64,000 nt of DNA. It comes from Escherichia phage Av-05. Location of the stretch: sequence record KM190144. One strand, 5' to 3'. The stretch's first letter is position 1; every line of letters begins with the position of its first letter. Both the position numbers and the translations under genes were made by a program. Of the stretch, positions 30,749 to 45,407 are shown one piece after another. The notes below the pieces were generated by a model that did not search any database, was not told where the DNA came from, and saw only the letters and a list, made by a program, of their open reading frames with translations.

Positions 30749-32053
30749 CTACTTACCAGGGAAAGTCTCTTCATAAAACTTAACAAGACGTTGATCAACG
30801 ATAATATCTTTATCCCTGATCCTACGTAATAACCTTAATCCTTTTGCACTTGTTGCTCTGCTAAAAGCCACGTATGCCATGCCCGGTGCAAAAGTCCCAT
30901 TGCCAAAGTCAACATTAACTTCCGGTAATGTTAATCCTTGTGCTTTGTGTATTGTAACAGCCCACCCAAGACGAATCGGTAAAGCCCTGTACTCACCAAT
31001 GATAATCTTCTCAATTTCTTCAGTTATTGTACCATCTGGGTTTTTCACCTTTATGGGGTTATACTCAACATTTTCCCACACATAAGGTTCTACGTCAACA
31101 ATATCCCCATTTTCAAGACGGACTCTAACACTGTACCTACGTAGTTCAACAATCTCTCCACGGGAACCATTCACATAGCTTGGTTCATTTAGTCCTTTAG
31201 GGTCATTGACAGTAATCATCACCTGCGCCCCCTCTTTCAGATACAACTCTTCCGGTACAGGTGTCTGGTTAAATTGCCCTGTCTTTTTTGCCTTGTAAAC
31301 TGTTGGGATTCCAGGTATTGCATCAAAACGTTTTTTGTTTATTTTGTCTGCTGCCGCGTTTGTTGAGGTTATTGTTATAGCATCCAAGGGTTTTCCCATG
31401 TTGTAGCAATAAGTATTCATAAACTCAACAATCTCTGGAATACGCTCTCCCTTGCGAAGGCAATTAAGAAGTGTTGAAAAATGAACACTACTTTGCCTGT
31501 ATATTTTATCAAGAAATACAGGATATGGGTTCAATTCTTTCCATGTTTTAGAAAAGCAACAAAGTTCTGTGTCGTGGAACTGGTAGTAGATCTCTTTTTC
31601 TTCACCTTTCAAAACAGGTGGATTCTGTAAGAAATCCCCGAACATGCACACCTGCAAACCACCGAAAGGCTCTTTAGGTTTTTTACGTGCCAGACGACAT
31701 TTCATGTCCATTTCCCAAAGTTTGTCTGCCCTGAACATACTTATCTCTTCAATAATAAGAATCTTCAGTGCTTTACTTTTAAGCAACTTCTTAGCCTTTG
31801 CCTTTATCTCTTCTGCATCTTTTTTAGTGGACACGCCTAATGAAAGTCCGAAAGCTCTGTGTGCCGTCATACCATCCACATTAATGGCAGCAGCCCCTGT
31901 AGGGGCCACTGTCAAGACTGAACCTGCGTATAAGGATTGGATAGTTTTTATGGTATGGCTCTTTCCAGCACCTGCATAACCACTGATAAACACATTTTCA
32001 CCGGACATTATAGCGCCAAGAGCATCTTCAACGCCAACCCCGTATTGAGACAT
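30749..32053 (-). CDS. SF1 DNA helicase (Dda/RecD-like)
   Basis: Walker A GYAGAGKSHT; C-terminal HKAQGLT...AYVAFSRA helicase motifs. Confidence 0.6.
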   Translation of the reverse strand: MSQYGVGVEDALGAIMSGENVFISGYAGAGKSHTIKTIQSLYAGSVLTVAPTGAAAINVDGMTAHRAFGLSLGVSTKKDAEEIKAKAKKLLKSKALKILIIEEISMFRADKLWEMDMKCRLARKKPKEPFGGLQVCMFGDFLQNPPVLKGEEKEIYYQFHDTELCCFSKTWKELNPYPVFLDKIYRQSSVHFSTLLNCLRKGERIPEIVEFMNTYCYNMGKPLDAITITSTNAAADKINKKRFDAIPGIPTVYKAKKTGQFNQTPVPEELYLKEGAQVMITVNDPKGLNEPSYVNGSRGEIVELRRYSVRVRLENGDIVDVEPYVWENVEYNPIKVKNPDGTITEEIEKIIIGEYRALPIRLGWAVTIHKAQGLTLPEVNVDFGNGTFAPGMAYVAFSRATSAKGLRLLRRIRDKDIIVDQRLVKFYEETFPGK

Positions 32054-33066
32054 CAGTCCTCCTTAGATTCTTGTAGATAAATCTCTTCAAGAATTTTACC
32101 CTGTACACCAATGACAATAATATCTGGCGCACCTGCTGGTTTTGGTGTTCCTGTCAGAACTTCATAACGACAGCAACGGCATTTTTTCTGGTTATAGTCA
32201 TAAGGGACACTGACAATATCTGCCGGATCCACAGATACTTCTACAAGTACCCTTGAAGTCTTCTCAAAGGTAGTGGCATAGTCAATAGATGCAACATGCA
32301 AACCTTGGCTACATGTTCTATTGGGATTATCCTCAACCATATTACGTGGCATGGAAATAACTTGCCCTTTATAATTAGGAACTTTACCTGTATGACAATC
32401 TCGTGGGCCATCTACAGTTATCTTAATTTTCTTGTATGCCTTAATATTTCCGTTTTCAAGGATCTCAAGATCATTATGTTTTACAAAATCATAAAGCATT
32501 TTAACAGAAGCATACGACGGGTTGTGTAGCAACTTCTGCATGAATTTGACATATCGTTCGTCAAAGCAATCATTCTCAATATCTTTAATGATTCGTTTAG
32601 CAATACTGCTTTCCTGTTTTTGCCCGTGCCAATACAAAACACCATCTATCAATACTAAATTATCACCAAAATCAATGGTCTTTTTCTTTTCTGCTTCTTT
32701 CTCTTCTAAAATACGTTGTACAGCAGCATCTATTCCTCCTGTCCAAAGGATAACACCAACTTCTTTGAAGATGGGGCTGCTACTATTTAGAGTATATTGT
32801 TCACCATTTAACAAAGTGATATGAATATTGTCTTGGGTAACAAGGACAATTGGTTGTGCAAGAGAATGCACTGGCTTCATAATACCTACAGGATCTTCCT
32901 TGGCCTTTTTGGTTGTCGGCATTCCTTTTTTGGGTGCAACTGTCCAGCGTTTAAGAACATTTAGACCACGATCAACAACCATCATATTATTTTTCTTAGC
33001 GTATTCACGAGCTTCACGACGTGACATGAATAAAGGATTACTCACCTTTTCCTCCTTTGCTGTCAA
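32053..33066 (-). CDS. rIIB: rIIB-like protein
   Basis: C-terminal region ...RTCSQGLHVASIDY...VSVPYDYN... resembles T4 rIIB; directly downstream of rIIA; start uncertain. Confidence 0.7.
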   Translation of the reverse strand: MTAKEEKVSNPLFMSRREAREYAKKNNMMVVDRGLNVLKRWTVAPKKGMPTTKKAKEDPVGIMKPVHSLAQPIVLVTQDNIHITLLNGEQYTLNSSSPIFKEVGVILWTGGIDAAVQRILEEKEAEKKKTIDFGDNLVLIDGVLYWHGQKQESSIAKRIIKDIENDCFDERYVKFMQKLLHNPSYASVKMLYDFVKHNDLEILENGNIKAYKKIKITVDGPRDCHTGKVPNYKGQVISMPRNMVEDNPNRTCSQGLHVASIDYATTFEKTSRVLVEVSVDPADIVSVPYDYNQKKCRCCRYEVLTGTPKPAGAPDIIVIGVQGKILEEIYLQESKED

Positions 33067-35038
33067 TAAATTTACGATACTCTAGCATCTCTGGAGTATT
33101 GAAATGCCTAATATTAATGTATTTTAACAATGGGTAGCGATCTTTCTTAATTTGTAGCAGCTTTTTACCAATTCTCTTCTTGGCCTCTATCATCCATAAT
33201 GCTTTCTCACGGCTATCTTCGTAGCCAGGAACTGAACAATAACTGGGCATGTTTACCTTCATCTCCCATTTTGGGAAACTGGCTACCATCACACCAAAAT
33301 AGCTAAGCTCTTTAACAATGTTATGATACTCATGATCTTTCCCCACTTCTTGATATAAATGATATTCAAGAAGGTTAGTTTTTGCAAGAGCATGAATATC
33401 CTCCTCAGTTATAACCCGTGCCTCATCTGGCAGCCAACTTGATCTGTTTAAAGGCACAATGTATAACTTACCTGCCACACCAAGATGTTTAAGAAATGTT
33501 GGTGGTTGCTTTCTCCAAGTTGTTCTAAGATTGGAAACGTATCCTAACGGGCATAATCCTTTCACCTGCCCACCCCAGTAGACCATAGCCGCCTCAATAT
33601 CTTCAAATTGAGCACGGGAAATACGGGTTACATCTACGGAGCCATCTTGGTTGATTATCCAAACTTTATGACCCGGTTCGTAATAACCATAGCCACCATA
33701 CTTTTTATCTGCTTTTTGCACTGGTCGTTTTTCAAGTTCAGATAACTTGAAAATCATCCCTTCAAAGAATTTATCACTGTATAAGGACAGAGCGTAATCA
33801 GCATCGGTTATAAACGATCTCTTACCGAACTTCTCTGCAAGCCAGTTACATTTAGAACGCACATACTTGCGATCATCATTGTAAACCAGTGGATGACCAT
33901 TCATCAACTCTGCGTATGAATAACGCTCATCCTTACCACGGCGTGAGCCTTCGCCACCATATGTTTCACAGTAATCTATGTAAGAACCATCAGTATAATT
34001 CTTGAATTTATTTGCAATAAAAGCAGCACCGTATTTTGTGGCGAAGTAACCGCCAATAAACTTCATATGATCAAGGACTGCTTTTAAAGTTGGCAGATCG
34101 CTTAATTCTTTTGTGATTTCTTCTCCGCGAAGTCGGATAGCTTTCGTCACAAAACTTTCAAGTTTATCACGGAATCCTCCGTCATTCTTTCCTTCTACTG
34201 TCCATTCTCGGCCTGGGTCTACATTACAATCCCCAATAGGGATAGATACCGTCATCATGGGCAGTTCTTTACGAGTCGAGAGATAATCAGAAAGATATGG
34301 TTGCTGACCCATGATAACAACACTATCCGCGTTTCTTGAAATGCTACTATACATCTCAAGAACCCAGCCAGTCTCCTCATCCTCATAACGATACTGAACA
34401 GGATAAGTGCGATCTTCAATCTGAGTTTTAACAAAAGGATCGTTAATGATATATGGAAATTTAGCATAGCGAAGGCATTTTACAATAGCCAGCCGATAAG
34501 CTCCTGTTTCCCAAGTGTTTACGTTAAATTTAACCTCTACACCATTCTCCTCTGTTGTTTCACAAGAGAATAAAGGCACAACCTCTGGGATTCCACTGTT
34601 TTTATGGACAGAGTATGTTGTTTTCACTCCATCTTTAACAGAAATAACTGTGAACATATCTGTTACTGCAAGAGGCGCTTTTGACCCAATACCTTTCGCG
34701 CCAATCAGATCATTACTGTTTCTTTTTGTGGACTCACCAATCATCATGAATGTACGTGTTACCATCTCATGATCCATACCTAACCCTGTATCCTTAACAG
34801 AATACCAAGGTTCCAAGTCTGTTGGTGAGTGGATGATGATGGGTTTGTCAGAACACCCTGCCTCTGTGTGAGCATCTACAGCGTTGAAGAGAGGCTCTCG
34901 TACTGCTGCTAAAGGTTTATCTTTATAAATTCCATCGATAAGAATACTGAAAGTCTCAGGATTCATTGCAATTGATGCTTGGTATCTTTCTACGTTCCCA
35001 GTTACCTGAACTTTGTTGTCAGATCTTTGAATAATCAT
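33038..35038 (-). CDS. rIIA: rIIA-like protein
   Basis: GHKL/HATPase-like N and G boxes (EPLFNAVDAH, GAKGIGSKAP) as in T4 rIIA; size 666 aa. Confidence 0.7.
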   Translation of the reverse strand: MIIQRSDNKVQVTGNVERYQASIAMNPETFSILIDGIYKDKPLAAVREPLFNAVDAHTEAGCSDKPIIIHSPTDLEPWYSVKDTGLGMDHEMVTRTFMMIGESTKRNSNDLIGAKGIGSKAPLAVTDMFTVISVKDGVKTTYSVHKNSGIPEVVPLFSCETTEENGVEVKFNVNTWETGAYRLAIVKCLRYAKFPYIINDPFVKTQIEDRTYPVQYRYEDEETGWVLEMYSSISRNADSVVIMGQQPYLSDYLSTRKELPMMTVSIPIGDCNVDPGREWTVEGKNDGGFRDKLESFVTKAIRLRGEEITKELSDLPTLKAVLDHMKFIGGYFATKYGAAFIANKFKNYTDGSYIDYCETYGGEGSRRGKDERYSYAELMNGHPLVYNDDRKYVRSKCNWLAEKFGKRSFITDADYALSLYSDKFFEGMIFKLSELEKRPVQKADKKYGGYGYYEPGHKVWIINQDGSVDVTRISRAQFEDIEAAMVYWGGQVKGLCPLGYVSNLRTTWRKQPPTFLKHLGVAGKLYIVPLNRSSWLPDEARVITEEDIHALAKTNLLEYHLYQEVGKDHEYHNIVKELSYFGVMVASFPKWEMKVNMPSYCSVPGYEDSREKALWMIEAKKRIGKKLLQIKKDRYPLLKYINIRHFNTPEMLEYRKFIDSKGGKGE

Positions 35039-35058
35039 TCAATACCTCTATGAACTAA

Positions 35059-35604
35059 TTATGCGTCAGGATGCTTGTAAAAAATATGATTCCCAACCTT
35101 CACTGTTCTCACCATAACTTTTGTCCAAGATGGTCTAACAGTAGTTGCATGATAGTACGTTGCTGATTTTGTGTAGTCAAGAGCTTTGTATAAACTTTTG
35201 TGGTCTTTATGCAATCTCATCAAGATTTTAGCATAAAATTTAGCCCTCAACCATCTATCCTTTTCATAAACTTTAAAGGATTGCCCACCGAATGTCCAAG
35301 AGAATTGCCCTCGCTGATAAACTACTTTCTTGATAGTACGAGGGAAATTTTTGTCATCCTTTCTGTTCAGCGTGGCAAACGCGACACCCATCATTCCATA
35401 ATCGCCTTCACCTCTTCCTTCTTTATACATATTACAGGCAAGAATATTAAGCTCTGTATCATTCTTCTTGCAAATGTGAAGAACTCTGGGCTTCTTTGCA
35501 CTTTCTTTGGCTAGAACAGGAGTAATAGACAGAGAAAGTGCACAGCAAACTGCAAATAATAAAGATCTTATTTTCAAAACTAACTCCAGACAAATAAGCC
35601 CCAT
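35059..35604 (-). CDS. secreted SleB/CwlJ-like cell-wall hydrolase
   Basis: signal-peptide-like N-terminus; GRGEGDYGMMGVAFATLNR and YQRGQFSW motifs; start uncertain. Confidence 0.45.
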   Translation of the reverse strand: MGLICLELVLKIRSLLFAVCCALSLSITPVLAKESAKKPRVLHICKKNDTELNILACNMYKEGRGEGDYGMMGVAFATLNRKDDKNFPRTIKKVVYQRGQFSWTFGGQSFKVYEKDRWLRAKFYAKILMRLHKDHKSLYKALDYTKSATYYHATTVRPSWTKVMVRTVKVGNHIFYKHPDA

Positions 35605-35618
35605 GAAGGGGCTTCTTG

Positions 35619-35960
35619 TTAACGATGGGTAATATCTCCAGATATTGTGTTCACACTACCATGGATCGTATTTGCGCAAACATCACCAGACACCGAAGAC
35701 ACATTGCCTAAAATATCTTTTTCAACATTAATATCCCCAGATGTTGAGATCACACCATTAGAGACATTTCCATAAACATTGATACCACCTGATGTTGTGC
35801 GTACCTCTTTAGCATCACCTTTGATAATAACTGTGATGTTTTTATCGTTTGTGGTGTGAACTAAATCACCATTGATATATACATTATCACCCTTAGTAGT
35901 GATAGAGATACTACCATTGGTATAGTTTCCAGAAATTGTATTGCCGTTAATTGTAATCAT
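35619..35960 (-). CDS. beta-repeat protein (bactofilin-like?)
   Basis: repetitive ...INGNTISGNYTNGSISITT...GDINV...GNVS... pattern; start at internal ATG. Confidence 0.35.
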   Translation of the reverse strand: MITINGNTISGNYTNGSISITTKGDNVYINGDLVHTTNDKNITVIIKGDAKEVRTTSGGINVYGNVSNGVISTSGDINVEKDILGNVSSVSGDVCANTIHGSVNTISGDITHR

Positions 35961-36131
35961 TGTTTTGTTTCTCTTTAACAATATGTGCTTTCTGAACAGA
36001 GTATACAAATGTTTTATTGTCTTCAATAAACTCTCTGCCCTGTTCTTCATTCTCAAAAATAATTGTGTCACACTTTGCCTTTAACATACCACGTTCTACA
36101 GTTGTGTGTGTCGTAGAAACAATTAAAGCCA

Positions 36132-37172
36132 TTAAGACACCTCGTTAAGTTGTTCCATGTACCAGCTACGGGCTTTATTTGTTGTAAATTTTGCCACGTC
36201 TTTCATAGAAAGAGAATTGGCTTCTAGCACATCAGCTTCTTCTTTGTTGATATCTCGGTTAACCCATGCGATAAATGCCCCCAGAGATGCGATGTCCAAT
36301 CCAATCTCTTGCAAACCTTGTTGCAAGCGGTTCTCGGTGACTGCATACTCCACAAAATCTTTGATAGATTGCAGTTTCACAGGATCAACAAAGGCTAGGG
36401 TTTTCACTTTAGAGACAGAATGTTTTTGCCCTTTCACTTTAAACCAAAGTGCAGAAACATGTGCCAAGTGGCGATCTTTAGGTGTCCATACCACACCCTC
36501 ACCAACACCAGATACACCAAAATATTTACCTACTGGGCACTCTTTTTCCACACCTTCGGTGATCTGTGCAATTTCTGATTGCACTGTCTCTGGCATGTTA
36601 AAAGGAATATCCAGTTCCCACTTACCAAAAGTTAAAATATTATAAATGCGTTGTTCTGGTAATCCAATGCCAAGAATATCGTCTAAAGCTAACCATTTTC
36701 GATGGTCATTCTCTTTTCCTACTGCCACACGGAAAATAGTAAAGAAAGGCATGATTTCAGATACCGCAACACCTTTCTGGATACCTTTTCCTGAAAATTC
36801 TCCAGCAATTTCTACTGGGAACTTAAATTCAATACCCCGATCTTCGCAGAGTTGCTTAACTTGCTCCAACAGGAGCTTATGGTCCTTTTCAACCATAAAG
36901 GCCATAAACCCATAATTGTCTTCTTCCAAAGACAAAACGCGTTCTTTGGACTGGTATACAACCTCATCTTCAGAATTAAAGACTACACGGCAATTAGTCC
37001 CGTGAATTTTAACTGTTCCCACATAAGGAATGAGATATTGGTCTGGAGAGGCAACCTTACGCTTTATATTGCCATTCTCATCACGACCATCATAGGTTAA
37101 ACGATCATGAATCGCTCGGATAACATTGCGAAATTGGCTAGTGCTTGGATACTTAGTTACTTGCATTATCAT
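36132..37172 (-). CDS. RNA ligase 2-like (Rnl2 family)
   Basis: nucleotidyltransferase motif I KIHGTN and EFSGKGIQK segment as in T4 Rnl2. Confidence 0.6.
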   Translation of the reverse strand: MIMQVTKYPSTSQFRNVIRAIHDRLTYDGRDENGNIKRKVASPDQYLIPYVGTVKIHGTNCRVVFNSEDEVVYQSKERVLSLEEDNYGFMAFMVEKDHKLLLEQVKQLCEDRGIEFKFPVEIAGEFSGKGIQKGVAVSEIMPFFTIFRVAVGKENDHRKWLALDDILGIGLPEQRIYNILTFGKWELDIPFNMPETVQSEIAQITEGVEKECPVGKYFGVSGVGEGVVWTPKDRHLAHVSALWFKVKGQKHSVSKVKTLAFVDPVKLQSIKDFVEYAVTENRLQQGLQEIGLDIASLGAFIAWVNRDINKEEADVLEANSLSMKDVAKFTTNKARSWYMEQLNEVS

Positions 37173-37539
37173 CTTCCTTATTAATAAAAGTCACACCAAG
37201 AGTTGCCTGGGCAAGAAGTTTCGTGATCTCCTGGCTCCATACAGGACTGGAGATAAAATGTTGTAATTGGAGGCTACCTAAGCGATAGGCACTGTTCATC
37301 GTAATAGCATAGATTTCTCCATCGTGCAGGATCAGACTTTCGACAACAGAAGTCCTGATATTAGAACCACTAAATCCACGCTTTTTGAGGTCATCTGCTA
37401 AGTATCCACAAATGCATCGAACATCTTTTGTATAACCAAAACCGAAATAGGGTTCAGCACCGAACAGGATACCAGCGTATCTCTTCCCACAGACATAGGT
37501 ATCTTTAGATATGCCTGTTACAGATTTACTTTCCATCAT
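37153..37539 (-). CDS. hypothetical protein
   Basis: 128-codon ORF. Confidence 0.3.
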   Translation of the reverse strand: MMESKSVTGISKDTYVCGKRYAGILFGAEPYFGFGYTKDVRCICGYLADDLKKRGFSGSNIRTSVVESLILHDGEIYAITMNSAYRLGSLQLQHFISSPVWSQEITKLLAQATLGVTFINKEDDNASN

Positions 37540-37739
37540 TGGCCCTCCACATCGTCAATATCTTCCATACCATCTTGCCACAGAACTTCATAGCAAGCGT
37601 CATAAATTGCGCTCATAGCATCTTTACGATCTAACACATCTACAATTTTTGGATCAATACTTTTAATTGCTTCCGCAATTTTATCGTAAGCAATATCAGG
37701 ATGCATGTTCTTTTTTGCCATCTGGGATCTCCTCTTCAT
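37536..37739 (-). CDS. hypothetical protein
   Basis: 67-codon ORF. Confidence 0.25.
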   Translation of the reverse strand: MKRRSQMAKKNMHPDIAYDKIAEAIKSIDPKIVDVLDRKDAMSAIYDACYEVLWQDGMEDIDDVEGQ

Positions 37740-38217
37740 TTAAGACATAAATTGTCACATCACAATCATGGAGAACAGATTCTATCATAGTTTCTATGAT
37801 TTTCCAATCCCCACCTGCTAGTCCAGCACCTATTTTTGGCAGCCCGATCTTATAATCAGACATAAAACCATCTGTGTGCCTTTGCAAACAATCTCGCATT
37901 GCTGCTAAGGAATCGTAAAGGGCGTTATAATTCAGATCCCTCACACCCATTCTACGCCCATTATAACCGTATTGTGTGTACAGATTAAAACCAGCCAGTT
38001 TACCTTCGTTCATGACAACCCAAGTATAACTGCCCAGTTTTGTTCGATCACCTTTCTCTGTCTTTAAATCTTCAGCATACATTTTTGGGAATGCATTCTT
38101 TATTTCTTTAGCAATTCCAGACCCCATGGTGCAAAATGTATTACAACCATGAGCTATTACATTAACATCCCTTTTAAGTGCTGCCTCTATTAAGCAACCA
38201 ACTTTATACTTAAGCAT
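37696..38217 (-). CDS. macro-domain protein
   Basis: VIAHGCNTFCTMGSGIAKEI and IGAGLAGGDW motifs; paralog of 54450-54917; start by alignment to paralog. Confidence 0.55.
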   Translation of the reverse strand: MLKYKVGCLIEAALKRDVNVIAHGCNTFCTMGSGIAKEIKNAFPKMYAEDLKTEKGDRTKLGSYTWVVMNEGKLAGFNLYTQYGYNGRRMGVRDLNYNALYDSLAAMRDCLQRHTDGFMSDYKIGLPKIGAGLAGGDWKIIETMIESVLHDCDVTIYVLNEEEIPDGKKEHAS

Positions 38218-38564
38218 TGTCTGATACCTCTTCGCATTCGTATGGATAGATATCCAGTCTTTTCCCATTCCATTCGCAAGAGTAACACTCAAGAAAACTA
38301 CCATTAAATATTTCTTCTCTTACTTCAAGAATATCTCCTGTTTTTGGATATCCATCAACATCCGAAAAATCAGAAATCATTTTAACCTTCATTCACAACT
38401 CCTTTCAAGGAAGGCATTCATACTTTCCAATGCCTCGCTTTTATTTTTAGCACAAACAACAAACACACGCTTATTTTTATAGGTGTATCCTGCCATGACC
38501 ATATCGGATCTTTCAATCCACCATTTCTCATGTAGCTGGTCTTTCTTAAATTTATGTTTTGCCA

Positions 38565-39021: not shown

Positions 39022-40230
39022 TTAATTTAAAATTGCATCTACATCTTTTGCAAAGTTCTTGTGATATTCAGTAATAATCTGCATGACAACAGGATACTTC
39101 TTAAGTAACTTCGCTGGCAGTCTGTCACGAAGGCCATCTAACAAAATACCCTTCCCTGTAGAGCTGTCATTAATAAACGTCATGAAGACAGATGATACAA
39201 AATCACGGTTGGAATGAGCATCATCTTTACCAAAGTTATCATACAGATATTGCAAGAAATTGGCTGAGAAGTCAATAATCTGATCATCTGTGTAGTTGGT
39301 ATTCTTCATAGCCTTACGTAGCCAGATGCAACCTTGTGATCCTAGCGTCCACAATACATCAGAGCTATCAGAGCCAGTGTGTTCTTTAATTGAACCATCC
39401 ATTACTTTCTCAATGGGGACCATATCAGCAACGCGAGTATGGTAATACCATAACTCTTTCATTAATGGCCCACCAATACACCCTTGCAAAGCAGCCATTG
39501 CAAGACGGGAAGTCAGATCACCATCCTCATACGCATACAGAATATCACTTGCAGTAACCCAAGTTCGTGGTGTGGCATATGCAGGACTGTTAATCTCATA
39601 CATGGCCTCGAAGTTTTCCAGTTTATCGGGATTGGCCTGGATAAAACCAATTACTGATGGATGCACATTTTTACGCAACGCATAATCCTGCATCCACACA
39701 GAGGCATCGTAATCAAGTTCCACAACAATAAAACGGTTAGCCAAAGGAGCTTCCATCATGGTCACTGCCGTACCATCACCAGGACGGTTCCCTGCCGCTG
39801 CAAAAACTGCACCTTTTGGAAAGGTGTACTTACCAATTTTATGATCCAAAACAATCTGGAAAGCTACTTTCTGTAAGTAGTTATCTGCATGTAAAAGTTC
39901 ATCAAGGAAAATAATACCTTCCCAATCTGGGTCTTCTGGCCAGAAATCTGGTAGCGCATAGACTGTACGTGTTTTTCCATTGTCGTCTGTTACAGGAATC
40001 TGTACACCTACAACGTCTGTCGGATCTTTATCCGCAAGACGAAAATCAACGAGATTATCATCTCGTTCACCAAACATCTCATTGGCAACTTGCTTCATGA
40101 CTTGACTCTTACCAAGCCCAGCACCACCAAACATCATAAGTGCTTTGTTTGCCTTCTTACAAAATTTCATGAGGCTTGGAATATCACGGAGTGTAACACG
40201 ATGATCTTCAAAAATATTTCTACTAGACAT
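39022..40230 (-). CDS. MoxR/CobS-like AAA+ ATPase
   Basis: Walker A GGAGLGKS, Walker B IIFLDELL, arginine-finger region. Confidence 0.6.
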   Translation of the reverse strand: MSSRNIFEDHRVTLRDIPSLMKFCKKANKALMMFGGAGLGKSQVMKQVANEMFGERDDNLVDFRLADKDPTDVVGVQIPVTDDNGKTRTVYALPDFWPEDPDWEGIIFLDELLHADNYLQKVAFQIVLDHKIGKYTFPKGAVFAAAGNRPGDGTAVTMMEAPLANRFIVVELDYDASVWMQDYALRKNVHPSVIGFIQANPDKLENFEAMYEINSPAYATPRTWVTASDILYAYEDGDLTSRLAMAALQGCIGGPLMKELWYYHTRVADMVPIEKVMDGSIKEHTGSDSSDVLWTLGSQGCIWLRKAMKNTNYTDDQIIDFSANFLQYLYDNFGKDDAHSNRDFVSSVFMTFINDSSTGKGILLDGLRDRLPAKLLKKYPVVMQIITEYHKNFAKDVDAILN

Positions 40231-40465
40231 TCGTCTCGTTCCTTAAATCGTTCTTCTGCTCAAGATAACTTTCAATGATACTGTCTATATCTGCTGATTC
40301 AATATCAGCATACAGATTTGTAATGCTTGATGCAAGGTCTTTGGCAGAAAGATTGTCTACTCTTTCTGCACCAAAAACTAAAAACCATTGTCGCCGTGTC
40401 ATCCTCGCTCTAACAACAGTTTTTAAAAACTCCGCTCTCTCTGAAAAATCAAGAGGTTTTACCAC
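40223..40465 (-). CDS. hypothetical protein
   Basis: 80-codon ORF. Confidence 0.3.
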   Translation of the reverse strand: MVKPLDFSERAEFLKTVVRARMTRRQWFLVFGAERVDNLSAKDLASSITNLYADIESADIDSIIESYLEQKNDLRNETNV

Positions 40466-40707
40466 TTATCCACCCAAACTCTGTTCTCATCACACCAGTC
40501 GTAGAACTCGTTCAAAGCCAGATTGAACTGCTGTAGAGGACTCACGATAAGGTTGGGGTTATCTTCTTTACTACAGATTTCCAAGTATTCCTCATATGTG
40601 AGAATATGCTGCATTTCTTCAAGAATATCATATAACCACCCATCGAAGTCAGCATTCTCTTCATCAGTCTGCTTTGGTAAAAGTCGTTTTACTCTTTTTA
40701 CAAGCAT
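40459..40707 (-). CDS. hypothetical protein
   Basis: 82-codon ORF. Confidence 0.3.
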   Translation of the reverse strand: MLVKRVKRLLPKQTDEENADFDGWLYDILEEMQHILTYEEYLEICSKEDNPNLIVSPLQQFNLALNEFYDWCDENRVWVDKW

Positions 40708-40807
40708 ATCTACAAACAGGTGAATATTATCATCTGCCCAAGGCTCTACCTTACCTTCTACGGGATTACCTTTCCAGATATCACGTAAATCAAGTCGATG
40801 TTTCCTT

Positions 40808-41005
40808 TTATAGCTCCTTAAGAGATTCTAAATCAAGATAGTCAATATCTTCGTCCACTCGTTTACCGTCTTCCTTACGGTATTTTACCTTAGTTTCAAA
40901 TGCTACCCAATAATCACCTTCATCTTTAAAGGTATCTTCCCACCCTAACCGGACTGCTGTCTTCCTGATGGTTCCTTTGTGAGTATATATCTGTTTACAA
41001 TACAT
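40808..41005 (-). CDS. hypothetical protein
   Basis: 65-codon ORF. Confidence 0.25.
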   Translation of the reverse strand: MYCKQIYTHKGTIRKTAVRLGWEDTFKDEGDYWVAFETKVKYRKEDGKRVDEDIDYLDLESLKEL

Positions 41006-41006
41006 T

Positions 41007-41222
41007 CTAATCCTCCCATTTTATCCATAAAGGGTATTCTGCAACATGCACTTTCTTACCCTTTTTGTTAATAAAAGTATACTCAACAAACTTTGCTATG
41101 TAAAACCTATTGTAATCCTCTGTACCTTTAACAGGACAGTCTGTCTTCCTTCTCTCCACCCATTCTCTGTGGATCACCGCTTTGTTCTTTGGATCAAAGG
41201 GGTGTGGTTGATAAACATCCAT
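41007..41222 (-). CDS. small conserved protein (paralog of 54899-55126)
   Basis: QPHPFDPKNKAVIHREW...EYTFINKKGKKVHVAEY shared with the + strand ORF. Confidence 0.4.
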   Translation of the reverse strand: MDVYQPHPFDPKNKAVIHREWVERRKTDCPVKGTEDYNRFYIAKFVEYTFINKKGKKVHVAEYPLWIKWED

Positions 41223-41719
41223 TATTTCCCCTCGAATCTTTTTCTTGCATCAACAAGTTTAAGATGCATTTCATGGTATTTCTTTAACCTTACCAAATCC
41301 TTATCTGATAAGGATTTAAGACGTTTTACGTCCATATTGTCTTTTAAATCAGCGAGTTTTACACGAATCGCATCATAATTAGTACAGATGCCCTCAATGT
41401 ACTCTTCTTCAGTCAGGCTCTGTTTCTTTGTTAGCAGAAGAACTGCATCTTTTACTCTGTTAGTGAACCCCAACATTACCAAATCGTAAGCTGTAACTTT
41501 GGTATCCTCAAGGATATCGTGAAGGACACCGATTGCCATTAGCTGTAAGTCATCATTACCAAGTTCATGCATCACCCTTAATGGGTGAAGAATGTATGGC
41601 ATTCCACCACGATCTTTCTGCTTAAGATGGTTTTCAGAGGCCAACTTTATAGCTAAAGCTAACTCCTGATGGGGTCTTAAATCTTGCATGTTACTAGGGA
41701 CAGACTTCGATTGTACCAT
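41222..41719 (-). CDS. HD-domain hydrolase (small alarmone hydrolase-like)
   Basis: HPLRVMHELG...VLHDILEDT resembles the SpoT/Mesh1 HD motif. Confidence 0.5.
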   Translation of the reverse strand: MVQSKSVPSNMQDLRPHQELALAIKLASENHLKQKDRGGMPYILHPLRVMHELGNDDLQLMAIGVLHDILEDTKVTAYDLVMLGFTNRVKDAVLLLTKKQSLTEEEYIEGICTNYDAIRVKLADLKDNMDVKRLKSLSDKDLVRLKKYHEMHLKLVDARKRFEGK

Positions 41720-42534
41720 TCATATGCCTCTTTCATATCAAAGGGTTTTATACCAATATTATCAAAATCTACAAGAGAATCAAGAAAAAATTCTCCTTTG
41801 TACCCAGCCATTTCTATCATTAAGCGTTCCTCTTGGGTAGGGATCTCCCCCAAGATAAGCTCTTCCAGCTCCTTTTCTACAACACGATGATACATTACTT
41901 CTTGGGTATTACACACCAAGTAGTAGTGCGATTTCTTATTCTCTACGCCTGGTGTGTTGGTTATCTTAATTCCAGCATGGCCTACATAATCATACATCTT
42001 TGTTTGGTAACGCATTCCATAACAACCTACCAGGGAAAAGGGTCCACAACTGGAATTAATCTCCCTGATGTGGAGAATATCTGGGTTTGTTCTGACATAG
42101 GAAGCCTTTATGGAAAACATATTACCATCCCAATGCCCCAATTGGGACAAAACAGACAGGAATTTTTGTGTTCGTGCAGACAACGACCCTGCTAAACATA
42201 TTCCATAATTAAAGCCTTGGAAAGAGATTGTTATTTGCCCACAAGTAATATCATAGCTTGAAAACTCATGCGTTAAGTTTACGCTTGCCATGTAAGCACG
42301 CTCGTCAGCTTCAACATAATATTTCCAATAACATTTCCTATCCCGAGTATCAAAACACATAAGCACAGCATGTTTTATGAGTTCTATTAAAGGGTTTGGT
42401 TCATGGTGGCGACTTTCAACTTCCCTTATAATGGCTTCACGGAGTGCATTAAAATTTATTTTCATAGATTTTGTGTGATGCAGGTAGTCATCAAAATAAA
42501 AATCCCCTTTATAATCCGTCAGCTTCTTCATCAT
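41677..42534 (-). CDS. hypothetical protein
   Basis: 285-codon ORF, first gene of the minus-strand early block. Confidence 0.35.
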   Translation of the reverse strand: MMKKLTDYKGDFYFDDYLHHTKSMKINFNALREAIIREVESRHHEPNPLIELIKHAVLMCFDTRDRKCYWKYYVEADERAYMASVNLTHEFSSYDITCGQITISFQGFNYGICLAGSLSARTQKFLSVLSQLGHWDGNMFSIKASYVRTNPDILHIREINSSCGPFSLVGCYGMRYQTKMYDYVGHAGIKITNTPGVENKKSHYYLVCNTQEVMYHRVVEKELEELILGEIPTQEERLMIEMAGYKGEFFLDSLVDFDNIGIKPFDMKEAYEWYNRSLSLVTCKI

Positions 42535-42644
42535 GTCTGTCCTCTAAAAAACTTTCATTAGCTCTTAAGAGAGTACAGAACTAAAAAATCAAAGTCAACG
42601 CTTGACAAACTGGAAATTTGTGAGATACTACGAACACAAGCTAA

Positions 42645-43460
42645 GTGACAGAGATATTCTGTATGGACTGGAATGAAGAGTTTACAACCAAAGAGATAAG
42701 GTATCTCAAAACACGACTCTTTTTCAAAAAGAGGAATGCCAAAGCAAGGGGTATAGAGTTTAATCTGACAGAAGATGACTGGTTTATGATGGGTAAAGGC
42801 TTACTTGGGAAAGGTGTTTGTGATTACACAGGCCTACCTTTTTCTGCAACACCTAATGACCCTCTCTACCCATCTGTTGAACGAATAGATGACAAAAAAG
42901 GGTATGTTCGTGGAAACGTTTGTGTAGTCGGCAAGAGAGCAAACCAGTTAAAAGATTTTCTTGTAGACAAAAAGAAAGCTCTAACGATTGTAGACCCACT
43001 TGACATGGATATCGTCCAAGGGATGATATTAAATATGTCAAAGGACCACTTGGAAAAGTTAAAACTTAAACACATACCTACGGAAACAGATATGAAAGAG
43101 ACAGAGAATGTAATTATTAATGAGCAGGTTGAAGAGATGAAAGAAAAATCTCTTCCTGACGATGTTGAAATTGCACTTGCATACGCAAACTACTGTAAAA
43201 CATTTGCGGAAGCAGGTATGAATGTTAGCGTTACTTATGCACAATTTAAGGCTAAATATTCAAGAAACACCTGTTCTCTGACAGGGGAGAAGTTAACAAA
43301 AACACCAAAACCTATTCTCATTATGGATTTAGATCTTGGGTTCGCAAAAGACAACTTTATTATTGTTTCTGAAAAGATGGAAACAGCATTAACACAACTC
43401 ATGATCAATACGAAAATGAGTTTACCAAAAATCACAGCTATGCTGAATAAGGTGGTTTAA
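42645..43460 (+). CDS. hypothetical protein with two internal repeats
   Basis: two C.(Y/S)TG... modules; first gene of + early block. Confidence 0.35.
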   Translation: MTEIFCMDWNEEFTTKEIRYLKTRLFFKKRNAKARGIEFNLTEDDWFMMGKGLLGKGVCDYTGLPFSATPNDPLYPSVERIDDKKGYVRGNVCVVGKRANQLKDFLVDKKKALTIVDPLDMDIVQGMILNMSKDHLEKLKLKHIPTETDMKETENVIINEQVEEMKEKSLPDDVEIALAYANYCKTFAEAGMNVSVTYAQFKAKYSRNTCSLTGEKLTKTPKPILIMDLDLGFAKDNFIIVSEKMETALTQLMINTKMSLPKITAMLNKVV

Positions 43461-43663
43461 TGAAAGATTTTCTACCAAAACAGTGTCCATTTTGTAAAAA
43501 TGATGCACTTTTGCTTAAACAGAAACGCTCTGGGCAAACAGTTTTCCACTACATTTATTGTCAGAAATGCGGGACTTCTGGACCCCACGCGCTGAGTGAG
43601 CTTAGTGCTATAAGTTGGTGGAATATCGGCAGCAAGAAATTAAAGGTAAAAATGTATGTTTGA
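43460..43663 (+). CDS. Lar-like zinc-ribbon protein (restriction alleviation family?)
   Basis: CPFC...C.KCG...WN pattern in 67 aa. Confidence 0.4.
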   Translation: MKDFLPKQCPFCKNDALLLKQKRSGQTVFHYIYCQKCGTSGPHALSELSAISWWNIGSKKLKVKMYV

Positions 43664-43919
43664 AGAAATTCTTGGGAGACCAGCTACCCTTCAGGAAGCC
43701 CAGATGATTGAATCTGGAAATAAGCCAAATTTTAAAGTTGGTGATAGGGTTATTTATAAAAATGCAAAGAACATTAAAACTTCTGTAGAAGCTATCGTAC
43801 TTTTTATGTTCCCAAGCCAACCATCAGGAAAGCAAGTTCCTGTATGGGGAGCCAGATTAACTGGTGGTAATAATTTTATGCCGCTTGATACCATAGAATT
43901 ATTTACAAGTAAAAAATAA
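43656..43919 (+). CDS. hypothetical protein
   Basis: 87-codon ORF. Confidence 0.3.
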   Translation: MFEEILGRPATLQEAQMIESGNKPNFKVGDRVIYKNAKNIKTSVEAIVLFMFPSQPSGKQVPVWGARLTGGNNFMPLDTIELFTSKK

Positions 43920-43970
43920 CAAGTATAATAGGCTGTCGAAAGATAGCCTATTTTTGTATGGAGAATAGTT

Positions 43971-45407
43971 ATGCAAAAAGAAGAATATGAAATGATTGCC
44001 AGATTAGAGAAGGATGCTGTAAAAATTATCCAATCGGCACGAATAGCTCTTTTAAAGTACCGACCATTCTACGGTACTTTGTTAAGTTCTCTTCCTTTAG
44101 TTGCGAACTGGAAATGGTTGCCAACAGCAGCTACTGACCACAAAAACCTCTACTTCAACCCTGAGTTTATTATGGGTATGCCTGAAGAAAGGAAGAAGAA
44201 GGTTTTTGAGCGTGTGGATAATCACCCCACAATGACACAACAAGAAAAAGATGACTATAAAGACTATGTGAACGTATTTTATCGTAAGAAAACACCCAAA
44301 GAGGTTGTTGTTATTCTTATGCACGAGCTACGTCATATTACAAATGACCATCTATCTCGTGGAAAAGCATTTGACTCTAAAACCTACAACACAGCAGCGG
44401 ACCACTATATCAATACAGATTTGGTAGTATCAGATCTCGGACCGCGCTCAAACCAGATGTGTTTCTTCCCAATGGGGAAACAGACAATCTTTGACAAAGA
44501 TAAAGAGTTTGGGTTTATGGCTTATTGCTATTGTGATTTTAATTTCCACGGCATGACAGCAGAGGAGATTTACAGTCTCATAAACAAAGGCCAGCCGTCT
44601 GTTGGCAAACCTATGGGCACACACATAGGGGATTATGATCAGGACAGCAATATCCTAGGGTATGAAGATCCTCACCCAGTGCCAAGCCAGACAGAAAAAG
44701 ATGATAATATGTCGTGGTCATCTGGTCTTATCGAAGCAGCAATGGAAGCAGCGGGAGGAGAGGGGCCGAAAGAGGTGCGTGATGTTATTGCAAGAATGCG
44801 TAAACCACACATAAATTATCTTCAGATAATAAAACAGCGTATGCTTTCTCGGATCAAGTCTAACCTGACATACAGGAAGCCATCTCGTAGGTCTGGATCT
44901 ATGACACAGGCACTTCGACAGTACGGAGCTATCGGTAAAAAACAGCATATCGTTTTACCAGGAAGAGAGTACGATAATACTATCGATATAGTTATTGGTT
45001 TTGATGTGTCTGGATCAATTTCGAAGGCAAATTTGGACAAAATCTTTGGAGAAATCGTAGGATTATGCCAGCTTTACCGTGTTTTTCGCGTGACATTGTT
45101 CTGTTGGTCAACAAAAGTCGGAGAGGTTAAAGTTTATACACACGAAAACATCAAGGAAATGCTTGATTATAAAGTGAATTCTACTGGTGGGACTCTTGCA
45201 GCATCAGCTTTTGAGTATATTGAAAATAACATTTTTGATGCAAAAGACGTTATTATTTTTACAGACGGGTATATAGAGGATTTAAGCCACAAGAAAAAAG
45301 ATTGGGGACGCAAATGGGATATTCTTTGGGTTATTTGTGGTCGTGGAAATAATAAATTTGTACCACCTTTCGGAAGGGCTGTAAATTTAGATGAACACGC
45401 AAAATAA
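43971..45407 (+). CDS. vWA-domain protein with N-terminal HExxH metallopeptidase-like motif (CobT/CoxE-like)
   Basis: LMHELRHITNDH motif; C-terminal MIDAS-like DVSGS; likely partner of the AAA+ ATPase at 39022-40230. Confidence 0.55.
   Translation: MQKEEYEMIARLEKDAVKIIQSARIALLKYRPFYGTLLSSLPLVANWKWLPTAATDHKNLYFNPEFIMGMPEERKKKVFERVDNHPTMTQQEKDDYKDYVNVFYRKKTPKEVVVILMHELRHITNDHLSRGKAFDSKTYNTAADHYINTDLVVSDLGPRSNQMCFFPMGKQTIFDKDKEFGFMAYCYCDFNFHGMTAEEIYSLINKGQPSVGKPMGTHIGDYDQDSNILGYEDPHPVPSQTEKDDNMSWSSGLIEAAMEAAGGEGPKEVRDVIARMRKPHINYLQIIKQRMLSRIKSNLTYRKPSRRSGSMTQALRQYGAIGKKQHIVLPGREYDNTIDIVIGFDVSGSISKANLDKIFGEIVGLCQLYRVFRVTLFCWSTKVGEVKVYTHENIKEMLDYKVNSTGGTLAASAFEYIENNIFDAKDVIIFTDGYIEDLSHKKKDWGRKWDILWVICGRGNNKFVPPFGRAVNLDEHAK

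Follow-up and report, generated by a model that had tools for sequence, protein, structure and literature searches.

NorQD is among the described pairs in which a MoxR-class AAA+ ATPase works with a protein carrying a von Willebrand factor A (vWA) domain. One NorD molecule serves each NorQ hexamer, and a finger of its vWA domain lies in the pore of the ring, where it touches the helix-2 inserts. The metal-ion-dependent adhesion site (MIDAS) of NorD serves the target and not the ATPase, and when ATP is hydrolyzed, the vWA domain is twisted against the N-terminal one by way of a linker (PMC9976466; PMC13036017). Phages have such pairs as well. In the 2013 annotation of phage rV5, gene 4 on the complement strand was called “MoxR - ATPase” (gp4) and gene 12 on the forward strand was listed as a conserved hypothetical gene with DUF2201_N (gp12). 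The 14 core genes of N4-like phages include gp24 and gp25, both of them middle genes (PMC4193335). For jumbo phages the pairing was spelled out in 2021 and proposed to serve virion assembly with proteolytic processing, by analogy with p618/p892 of ATV, the Acidianus two-tailed virus (PMC7824862; PMC4124505). Here we analyze a pair of this kind in 64,000 nucleotides of Escherichia phage Av-05 (sequence record KM190144), a stretch that is referred to below, at its full length, as the window. The system is not new, and its domain assignments were already in the rV5 annotation and the 2021 jumbo-phage survey. The pairing itself is known in many phages and bacteria, and the sole oddity of this locus is the placing of its two genes on either arm of a divergent promoter region.

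Conserved genomic coupling, as read from sequence comparison, supports the view that the two genes encode the halves of one MoxR-vWA two-component system. The initial annotation of this DNA had proposed a MoxR-vWA domain make-up, which is borne out by profile matches, by structure matches and by the tight two-gene units that the families form in bacteria and most phages. At both of the bacterial chromosomal loci studied (reached separately, one from an ATPase homologue and one from a vWA homologue), an AAA_5 gene is followed directly by a gene with DUF2201_N and DUF2201. Eighty viral loci were retrieved via the ATPase alignment and scanned with hidden Markov models of both families. The partner lies downstream on the same strand in 61 of the 80, with a median gap of 173 nt; the order is divergent in nine, the contig ends too soon in nine, and a single locus has room but no partner. 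The co-occurrence check across phage genomes that had been proposed with the initial annotation came out positive, with the families adjoining in those 61 loci and both genes kept in 9/9 loci of the split clade. N4-like gp24 and gp25 belong to the same two families, with one small open reading frame (ORF) between them, and gp059 and gp060 of jumbo phage K64-1 are the same pair. Relatives of the ATPase were found in 822 records of the phage database and relatives of the partner in 488. The two proteins also co-diverge across loci (r = 0.98), but this correlation is driven by the Vequintavirinae series and is absent within the distant clade, so that it shows co-inheritance only and not interaction.

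The window belongs to an Avunavirus-like phage of the Vequintavirinae, and the region shares 94.7% DNA identity with Escherichia phage 18-1-2 and three sister records, in all of which both genes are named just “hypothetical protein”. Both ORFs were recovered at exactly the coordinates and on the strands first reported (Table 1). They are divergent and 3.7 kb apart; their description as lying on opposite arms, and not in an operon, was correct and applies equally to all nine close relatives examined. Among the viral loci, the divergent order is confined to the rV5/Avunavirus-type clades (9/80), in which the genes are 3.4-5.1 kb apart. These nine loci are the closest relatives of the window, with 45-76% ATPase identity, and they share a layout in which vWA <- small ORF <- Srd-like on one arm stands back to back with phrog_10920 -> HD -> ... 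-> ATPase -> ... Macro -> RNA ligase -> rIIA on the other. CR3-like Vequintavirinae (38% identity) have HD -> ... -> ATPase -> vWA on a single strand. Because the two genes are adjacent in these CR3-like relatives and in every outgroup, the divergent order arose inside the Vequintavirinae. On this comparative evidence, the split order is derived and has been stable since. After the split both genes persist, and all catalytic, MIDAS and zinc motifs are kept down to 45% identity.

The minus-strand gene encodes what is probably an active ATPase of the MoxR class, judging by its motifs and its predicted fold. Its best Pfam match is bpMoxR, at 16.5 bits against a gathering cut-off of 27. Among the PHROGs it is assigned to phrog_1297, “ATPase”, at 3.6e-105. 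Homologues found at E values of 1e-39 to 1e-22 carry AAA_3/AAA_5 (PF07726/PF07728), and a profile of the family matches midasin AAA domains (9e-30) and NorQ (1e-5). Motif conservation was scored on an alignment of 30 homologues, in which sensor 1 (N148), the arginine finger (R166, in LANRF) and sensor 2 (P221-R222) are invariant; the Walker motifs are given in Table 1. The AlphaFold2 model (predicted local distance difference test score, pLDDT, 86.8) has a beta-hairpin after helix 2 (strands 76-81/87-92) and short strands at 131-136 before strand 4, in the pre-sensor-1 position, so that both the helix-2-insert and the pre-sensor-1 hairpins expected of the MoxR class are present in the predicted structure. 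The top Foldseek matches of the model are CbbQ2 and NorQ at a probability of 1.00 (CbbQ 6l1q and the 2026 NorQ-NorD complexes 9qh4-9qhg). Homologue domains, profile matches, fold and conserved motifs all uphold the AAA+ assignment of the initial annotation. Of its label “MoxR/CobS-like”, the MoxR part stands; the likeness to CobS holds at the level of the AAA_5 superfamily only, and CbbQ/NorQ-like is the better fit.

The plus-strand partner exceeds the gathering thresholds of two Pfam families, DUF2201_N (a putative metallopeptidase; 2.5e-20) and the VWA-like DUF2201 (2.9e-10), is assigned to phrog_1314 at 1.7e-114, and gave an AlphaFold2 model with a pLDDT of 87.8. The suggested Pfam and profile check on the two proteins supports the AAA+ and vWA assignments, with the ATPase’s own Pfam match remaining sub-threshold. 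Conservation in the partner was scored on an alignment of 36 homologues. The full MIDAS set (D345-x-S347-x-S349, T408 and D432) is invariant or nearly so and, together with the DUF2201 match, confirms the vWA domain. What had been described as an N-terminal “HExxH-like” motif is a genuine HExxH zincin motif within a recognized Pfam family, which is a stronger result than was claimed: H122 and H127 are invariant, and H118 and E119 are lost in just three bacterial homologues and kept by every phage member. D144 and N148 are likewise invariant or nearly so, and either H127 or D144 would serve as the third zinc ligand. When only the N-terminal domain was used for the profile, it matched the minigluzincin MJ1213 at 3e-4, and also M48 peptidases (BepA, HtpX), in an alignment that spans the edge strand and the HExxH helix. 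The N-terminal domain thus has the features of an intact-looking zincin metallopeptidase with putative activity. Searches found no solved structure for a member of the DUF2201_N family and no biochemical data in the literature for any DUF2201_N protein. The partner is laid out like NorD: its vWA domain is C-terminal and is joined to the N-terminal domain by a variable linker. A conserved basic hairpin with the consensus S-Y-x-R-P-S-R-R (model strands 297-304 and 330-334, preceding strand 338-345) runs straight into vWA strand 1 and the MIDAS aspartate.

Two lineage-specific segments were also observed. The vWA proteins of Vequintavirinae have an insert of ~40 residues before the HExxH helix (~residues 68-110; 44172-44300), and their ATPases have a longer C-terminal helical region (~residues 335-402; 39022-39228); other clades are without either. 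These segments could form a contact between the two proteins that is particular to this lineage. A CobS/CobT cobaltochelatase identity was considered and rejected, as no CobS/CobT model or structure was among the matches and the partner’s N-terminus is a protease domain, not CobT. A scan against NCBIfam returned only noise for both proteins.

Table 1. Coordinates of the two genes, their domains and motifs, and the associated expression signals in the window
Feature	Position	Strand	Details and basis
ATPase gene	39022..40230	-	ORF, 402 aa; rV5 gp4 / N4 gp24 family, phrog_1297
Walker B IIFLDE, residues 106-111	39898..39915	-	F108 and D110 invariant, E111 nearly so (30 homologues)
Walker A GGAGLGKS, residues 35-42	40105..40128	-	G38, G40, K41 and S42 invariant (30 homologues)
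Divergent intergenic region between the two arms	42535..42644		110 bp; ORF layout and GC-skew switch
Promoter-like site TTTACA-16-TATAAT (11/12) overlapping an 11-bp hairpin and T-tract	43902..43952	+	Directly 5' of the vWA ribosome-binding site
Zincin-vWA partner gene	43971..45407	+	ORF, 478 aa; rV5 gp12 / N4 gp25 family, phrog_1314
N-terminal zincin (metallopeptidase) domain, ~residues 1-205	43971..44585	+	Pfam DUF2201_N; N-terminal profile matches
HExxHxxxxH putative zinc-binding/catalytic motif (H118 E119 L R H122 I T N D H127)	44322..44351	+	Conservation in homologues
Variable acidic linker, conserved helices and basic hairpin (LTYRKPSRR ...) into vWA strand 1	44586..44975	+	Alignment columns 240-500; model
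C-terminal vWA domain, ~residues 336-478	44976..45404	+	MIDAS D345xS347xS349 at 45003-45017, T408, D432

We consider it probable that the pair is a NorQD-like, ATP-driven remodeling machine that also cleaves its client, and that it acts before the late phase and is not part of the virion. The ATPase would form a hexameric ring, and one copy of the partner would dock on it via the vWA domain. By analogy with the NorD finger in NorQ, the basic hairpin beside vWA strand 1 is a candidate finger (residues ~296-335) that probably enters the central pore. The MIDAS site would grip an acidic residue of the client protein, and ATP hydrolysis would turn the vWA domain against the N-terminal domain, thereby remodeling the client. 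With an intact-looking zincin at the N-terminus of the partner, the pair is most simply read as a remodeling machine that also cuts what it holds, the active-looking zinc protease coupling remodeling to client cleavage. The machine would work inside the infected cell and would most likely be produced ahead of the late genes; the two genes probably have separate promoters, and this could set a ratio of ~6:1. The sequence comparisons show the domain identities, the intact catalytic, MIDAS and zinc motifs, and the gene pairing kept across bacteria and phages. The physical interaction, the finger, the protease activity, the timing and the client are the parts of this model that we infer.

The closest solved relatives, NorQ and CbbQ, act as maturation chaperones (PMC13036017), and genes of the deoxythymidine monophosphate (dTMP) pathway and nucleotide metabolism recur as neighbors of the phage pairs. 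One could therefore envisage a chaperone for cofactor insertion or maturation of a phage metalloenzyme, similar to NorQD, CbbQO, CoxDE and CobST, with HExxH binding metal or client and not acting as a protease. We judge this very unlikely, as the catalytic Glu of HExxH is conserved and not the metal ligands alone, and no metalloenzyme common to all pair-bearing phage lineages was noticed, albeit without a systematic check.

For the remodeling protease, we somewhat favor a client from the early or middle phase (DNA or nucleotide metabolism, of phage or host) over a protein of the tail or head. Candidates in the pre-late phase could be host takeover or an assembly for replication or nucleotide metabolism. 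Mass spectrometry of rV5 virions detected neither gp4 nor gp12, and this, along with the early and middle gene neighborhoods, underlies the slight lean to a pre-late client. In the window, the neighbors of the pair are Srd-like, rIIA, Macro, RNA ligase and HD genes. A dCTP deaminase gene lies directly 3' of N4-like gp25, a thymidylate synthase gene lies ~2 kb downstream of the pair in K64-1, and the environmental loci include thymidylate synthase in 21 and dihydrofolate reductase in 19.

Several observations weigh against an early-acting remodeling protease. The ATPase alone reaches no Pfam gathering threshold, and the two transcription units in this phage remove the usual operon argument. In the literature that we searched, nothing shows directly, for any phage member, that the two proteins interact, that the ATPase is active or that proteolysis occurs. 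Searches on DUF2201 in phages, Schitoviridae VWA, Vequintavirinae MoxR, CRISPRi-ART or transposon essentiality, and anti-defense returned no functional data for either gene (phage Tn-seq preprints concern other phages), in agreement with the initial annotation, which had called the role in infection not established. The environmental loci form one related clade, so that their neighborhoods are not independent evidence. Finally, the K64-1 pair sits after virion structural genes and an Hsp70-like gene, and the small ORFs flanking the vWA gene in the window fall into PHROGs labeled “tail protein”, both of which fit the virion-assembly proposal. In that proposal, made for the MoxR and vWA-metallopeptidase pair of group 2.2 jumbo phages by Iyer et al. 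2021 (PMC7824862), the pair would be a chaperone and protease that folds, assembles and trims tail or head structural proteins. It can draw on ATV, whose MoxR protein p618 binds p892, the vWA protein, as well as tail proteins (PMC4124505), and on roseophage RPP1, which has a second structural module near its gp24/25 homologues. We nevertheless regard this as a possible but rather unlikely role. The pair maps to the early region in this phage, to the middle one in N4, and beside dTMP-pathway genes in other lineages; it escaped detection in rV5 virions, though an assembly chaperone need not be packaged; and PHROG labels are unreliable in this region, the vWA family itself being called “HNH endonuclease”.

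The neighbors in the window can also be viewed as host-interaction genes (Srd/sigma70-decoy-like, rIIA, Macro, RNA ligase, HD hydrolase), in which case the pair might be a host-directed or counter-defense protease whose vWA/MIDAS module captures a host protein for the zincin to cleave while the ATPase unfolds or gates it. The strict retention of HExxH in all phage members and its loss in some bacterial ones are in keeping with such a role, and in bacteria the ternary MoxR-vWA systems that have peptidase effectors belong to the conflict systems (PMC7159879). This reading is doubtful, and we think it unlikely to be correct: the genes belong to the core of N4-like phages and are conserved among phages whose hosts differ widely, unlike typical anti-defense genes with their fast turnover, and the bacterial homologues are plain two-gene units in ordinary chromosomal contexts. 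Moreover, neither protein matched a PADLOC defense model at E <= 0.1. A more specific version, which we offer as a speculation and hold to be decidedly unlikely, is an ATP-gated protease that large virulent phages use early against a conserved host protein (for instance a defense, stress-response or transcription factor), with the rV5-lineage split and the private promoter-terminator cassette of the vWA gene tuning a 6:1 stoichiometry. If true, this early host-directed protease would mirror, on the phage side, the MoxR-vWA-peptidase conflict systems of bacteria.

Signals for separate expression were examined on both arms. ORF 41677-42534 (-) and ORF 42645-43460 (+) point apart, and GC skew flips sign between them. 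The gap holds one good plus-strand sigma70-like match, TTGACA-16-GATACT with a TG extension (extended -10), at 42602-42629, and back-to-back TTGAC elements (GTCAACGCTTGAC); bidirectional promoters have been predicted at the equivalent gene 10/11 junction of rV5 (PMC3606486). Over the region as a whole, the promoter scan returned 18 sites against 19.3 expected, which is not above chance, so that individual promoter calls serve as leads only. Of the “early divergent promoter region” named in the initial annotation, the divergent gap and the one good sigma70-like match stand, and the word “early” draws only on gene content and rV5. The start codon of the ATPase gene overlaps the stop codon of the preceding 80-aa ORF (40223-40230; ATGTCTAG), which suggests that the ATPase is translated within a minus-arm operon by translational coupling. 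Upstream of the vWA gene, the -10 element of the promoter-like site overlaps the 5' arm of the hairpin (-15.7 kcal/mol, z = -4.8), and GGAG and the ATG follow. The same promoter and hairpin layout, with other stem sequences, occurs 5' of the vWA gene in six relatives (loci L004, L005, L007, L011, L012 and L014). L014 is the CR3-like locus, in which the layout sits between the adjoining ATPase and vWA genes; its presence where the genes adjoin means that it predates the split. It thus seems that expression of the partner was already under separate control before the split, which may explain why the split was tolerated. The promoter-hairpin element may act as a terminator-promoter insulator through which the vWA gene is expressed at a level of its own.

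The different transcription units, and the apparent promoter and insulating hairpin of the vWA gene, could be taken to mean that the two proteins have acted independently since the split and that their two-component likeness is merely historical. We find this hardly credible. Both genes are retained in every one of the nine split-clade loci with their motifs intact, and the own-promoter layout, being found in L014 as well, is older than the split. In addition, NorD is expressible only with NorQ co-expression, and the same has been reported for CbbQO (PMC9976466).

Further observations concern the surroundings of the pair. The arms (30749-38304 and 41222-43460) hold typical early or host-interaction genes, namely those for a Dda-like helicase, rIIA, RNA ligase, a Macro domain protein and an HD phosphohydrolase, the last of which is named ppGpp hydrolase in relatives. 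One arm protein matches both Srd/sigma70-decoy and HNH/endonuclease VII PHROGs, and the first minus-arm ORF (41677-42534) falls into a PHROG labeled “thymidylate kinase”, a label without Pfam support. Genes of the dTMP pathway recur beside the pair, at L084 6340-6846, L085 8592-8975, L035 14308-15330, L048 20198-20743 and, by its PHROG label, 41677-42534 of the window. No tRNA or tmRNA genes were detected within positions 1-64000 of the window; rV5 has a tRNA cluster elsewhere in its own genome. Captured defense genes were dropped as an identity for the pair on the absent PADLOC match.

Names in public records vary. The record of phage 4MG says MoxR, and BASEL-type records say “metallopeptidase”. 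The phrog_1314 label “HNH endonuclease” is wrong and has spread to many GenBank records of phages, including K64-1 gp060 (L085 5363-6748), GAP31 and Mydo. Elsewhere the ATPase is wrongly called “ribosomal protein uS19” (P0050) and the vWA protein “DNA repair ATPase” (P0089). Three “Campylobacter phage” records, D1, A142 and C5 (MG065646, MG065662 and MG065659), hold rV5-like genomes. Compared with the window proteins, the ATPase and vWA genes in them do not differ in identity, coverage or scores from those of rV5-type coliphage records, which suggests that these entries are mislabeled or contaminated.

The pair is among the few gene sets common to N4-like podoviruses (where it is core), rV5-like myoviruses and Rak2-like jumbo phages. 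To the earlier assignments we add that the split order is derived within the Vequintavirinae and that all catalytic, MIDAS and zinc motifs outlast it. The company of early, middle and dTMP-pathway genes in several lineages, and not of structural genes, questions the published virion-assembly guess, and the new NorQD structures offer a concrete, testable mechanism. Since rV5-like and N4-like coliphages are genetically tractable, the function of the pair could be settled with standard tools.

The closest counterparts are other phage pairs (rV5 gp4 and gp12, N4 gp24 and gp25, and those of group 2.2 jumbo phages such as K64-1 gp059 and gp060), which have the same families and the motifs HExxHxxxxH, DxSGS and Walker A/B. 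The rV5-type proteins are 51% and 48% identical to the window proteins. In gene order, the N4-like phages, the jumbo phages and the CR3-like Vequintavirinae have the ATPase gene and then the vWA gene on one strand, whereas the window and rV5 are divergent. NorQ-NorD and CbbQ-CbbO share only 13-19% identity with the window proteins; the N-terminal zincin of the window partner is absent from NorD and CbbO, and the clients of NorQD and CbbQO (cNOR and Rubisco) are irrelevant to a phage. ATV also encodes a MoxR ATPase (p618) and a vWA partner (p892), and there the partner stimulates the ATPase (PMC4124505). ATV, however, is an archaeal virus whose p618 has an extra domain and is a major component of the virion, its likeness to the window pair is at the family level, and its system is without a peptidase domain according to Iyer et al. 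2021 (PMC7824862). The bacterial MoxR-vWA ternary conflict systems (VMAP, iSTAND, FtsH and beta-propeller types) have a MoxR-vWA core and sometimes peptidase effectors fused to the vWA protein (PMC7159879), and the weak bpMoxR match of the ATPase points towards this group. The window pair and the bacterial loci differ from them in having no conserved third gene beside the pair. The window proteins have no PADLOC match, and the window peptidase is N-terminal, of the DUF2201_N type and catalytically intact-looking.

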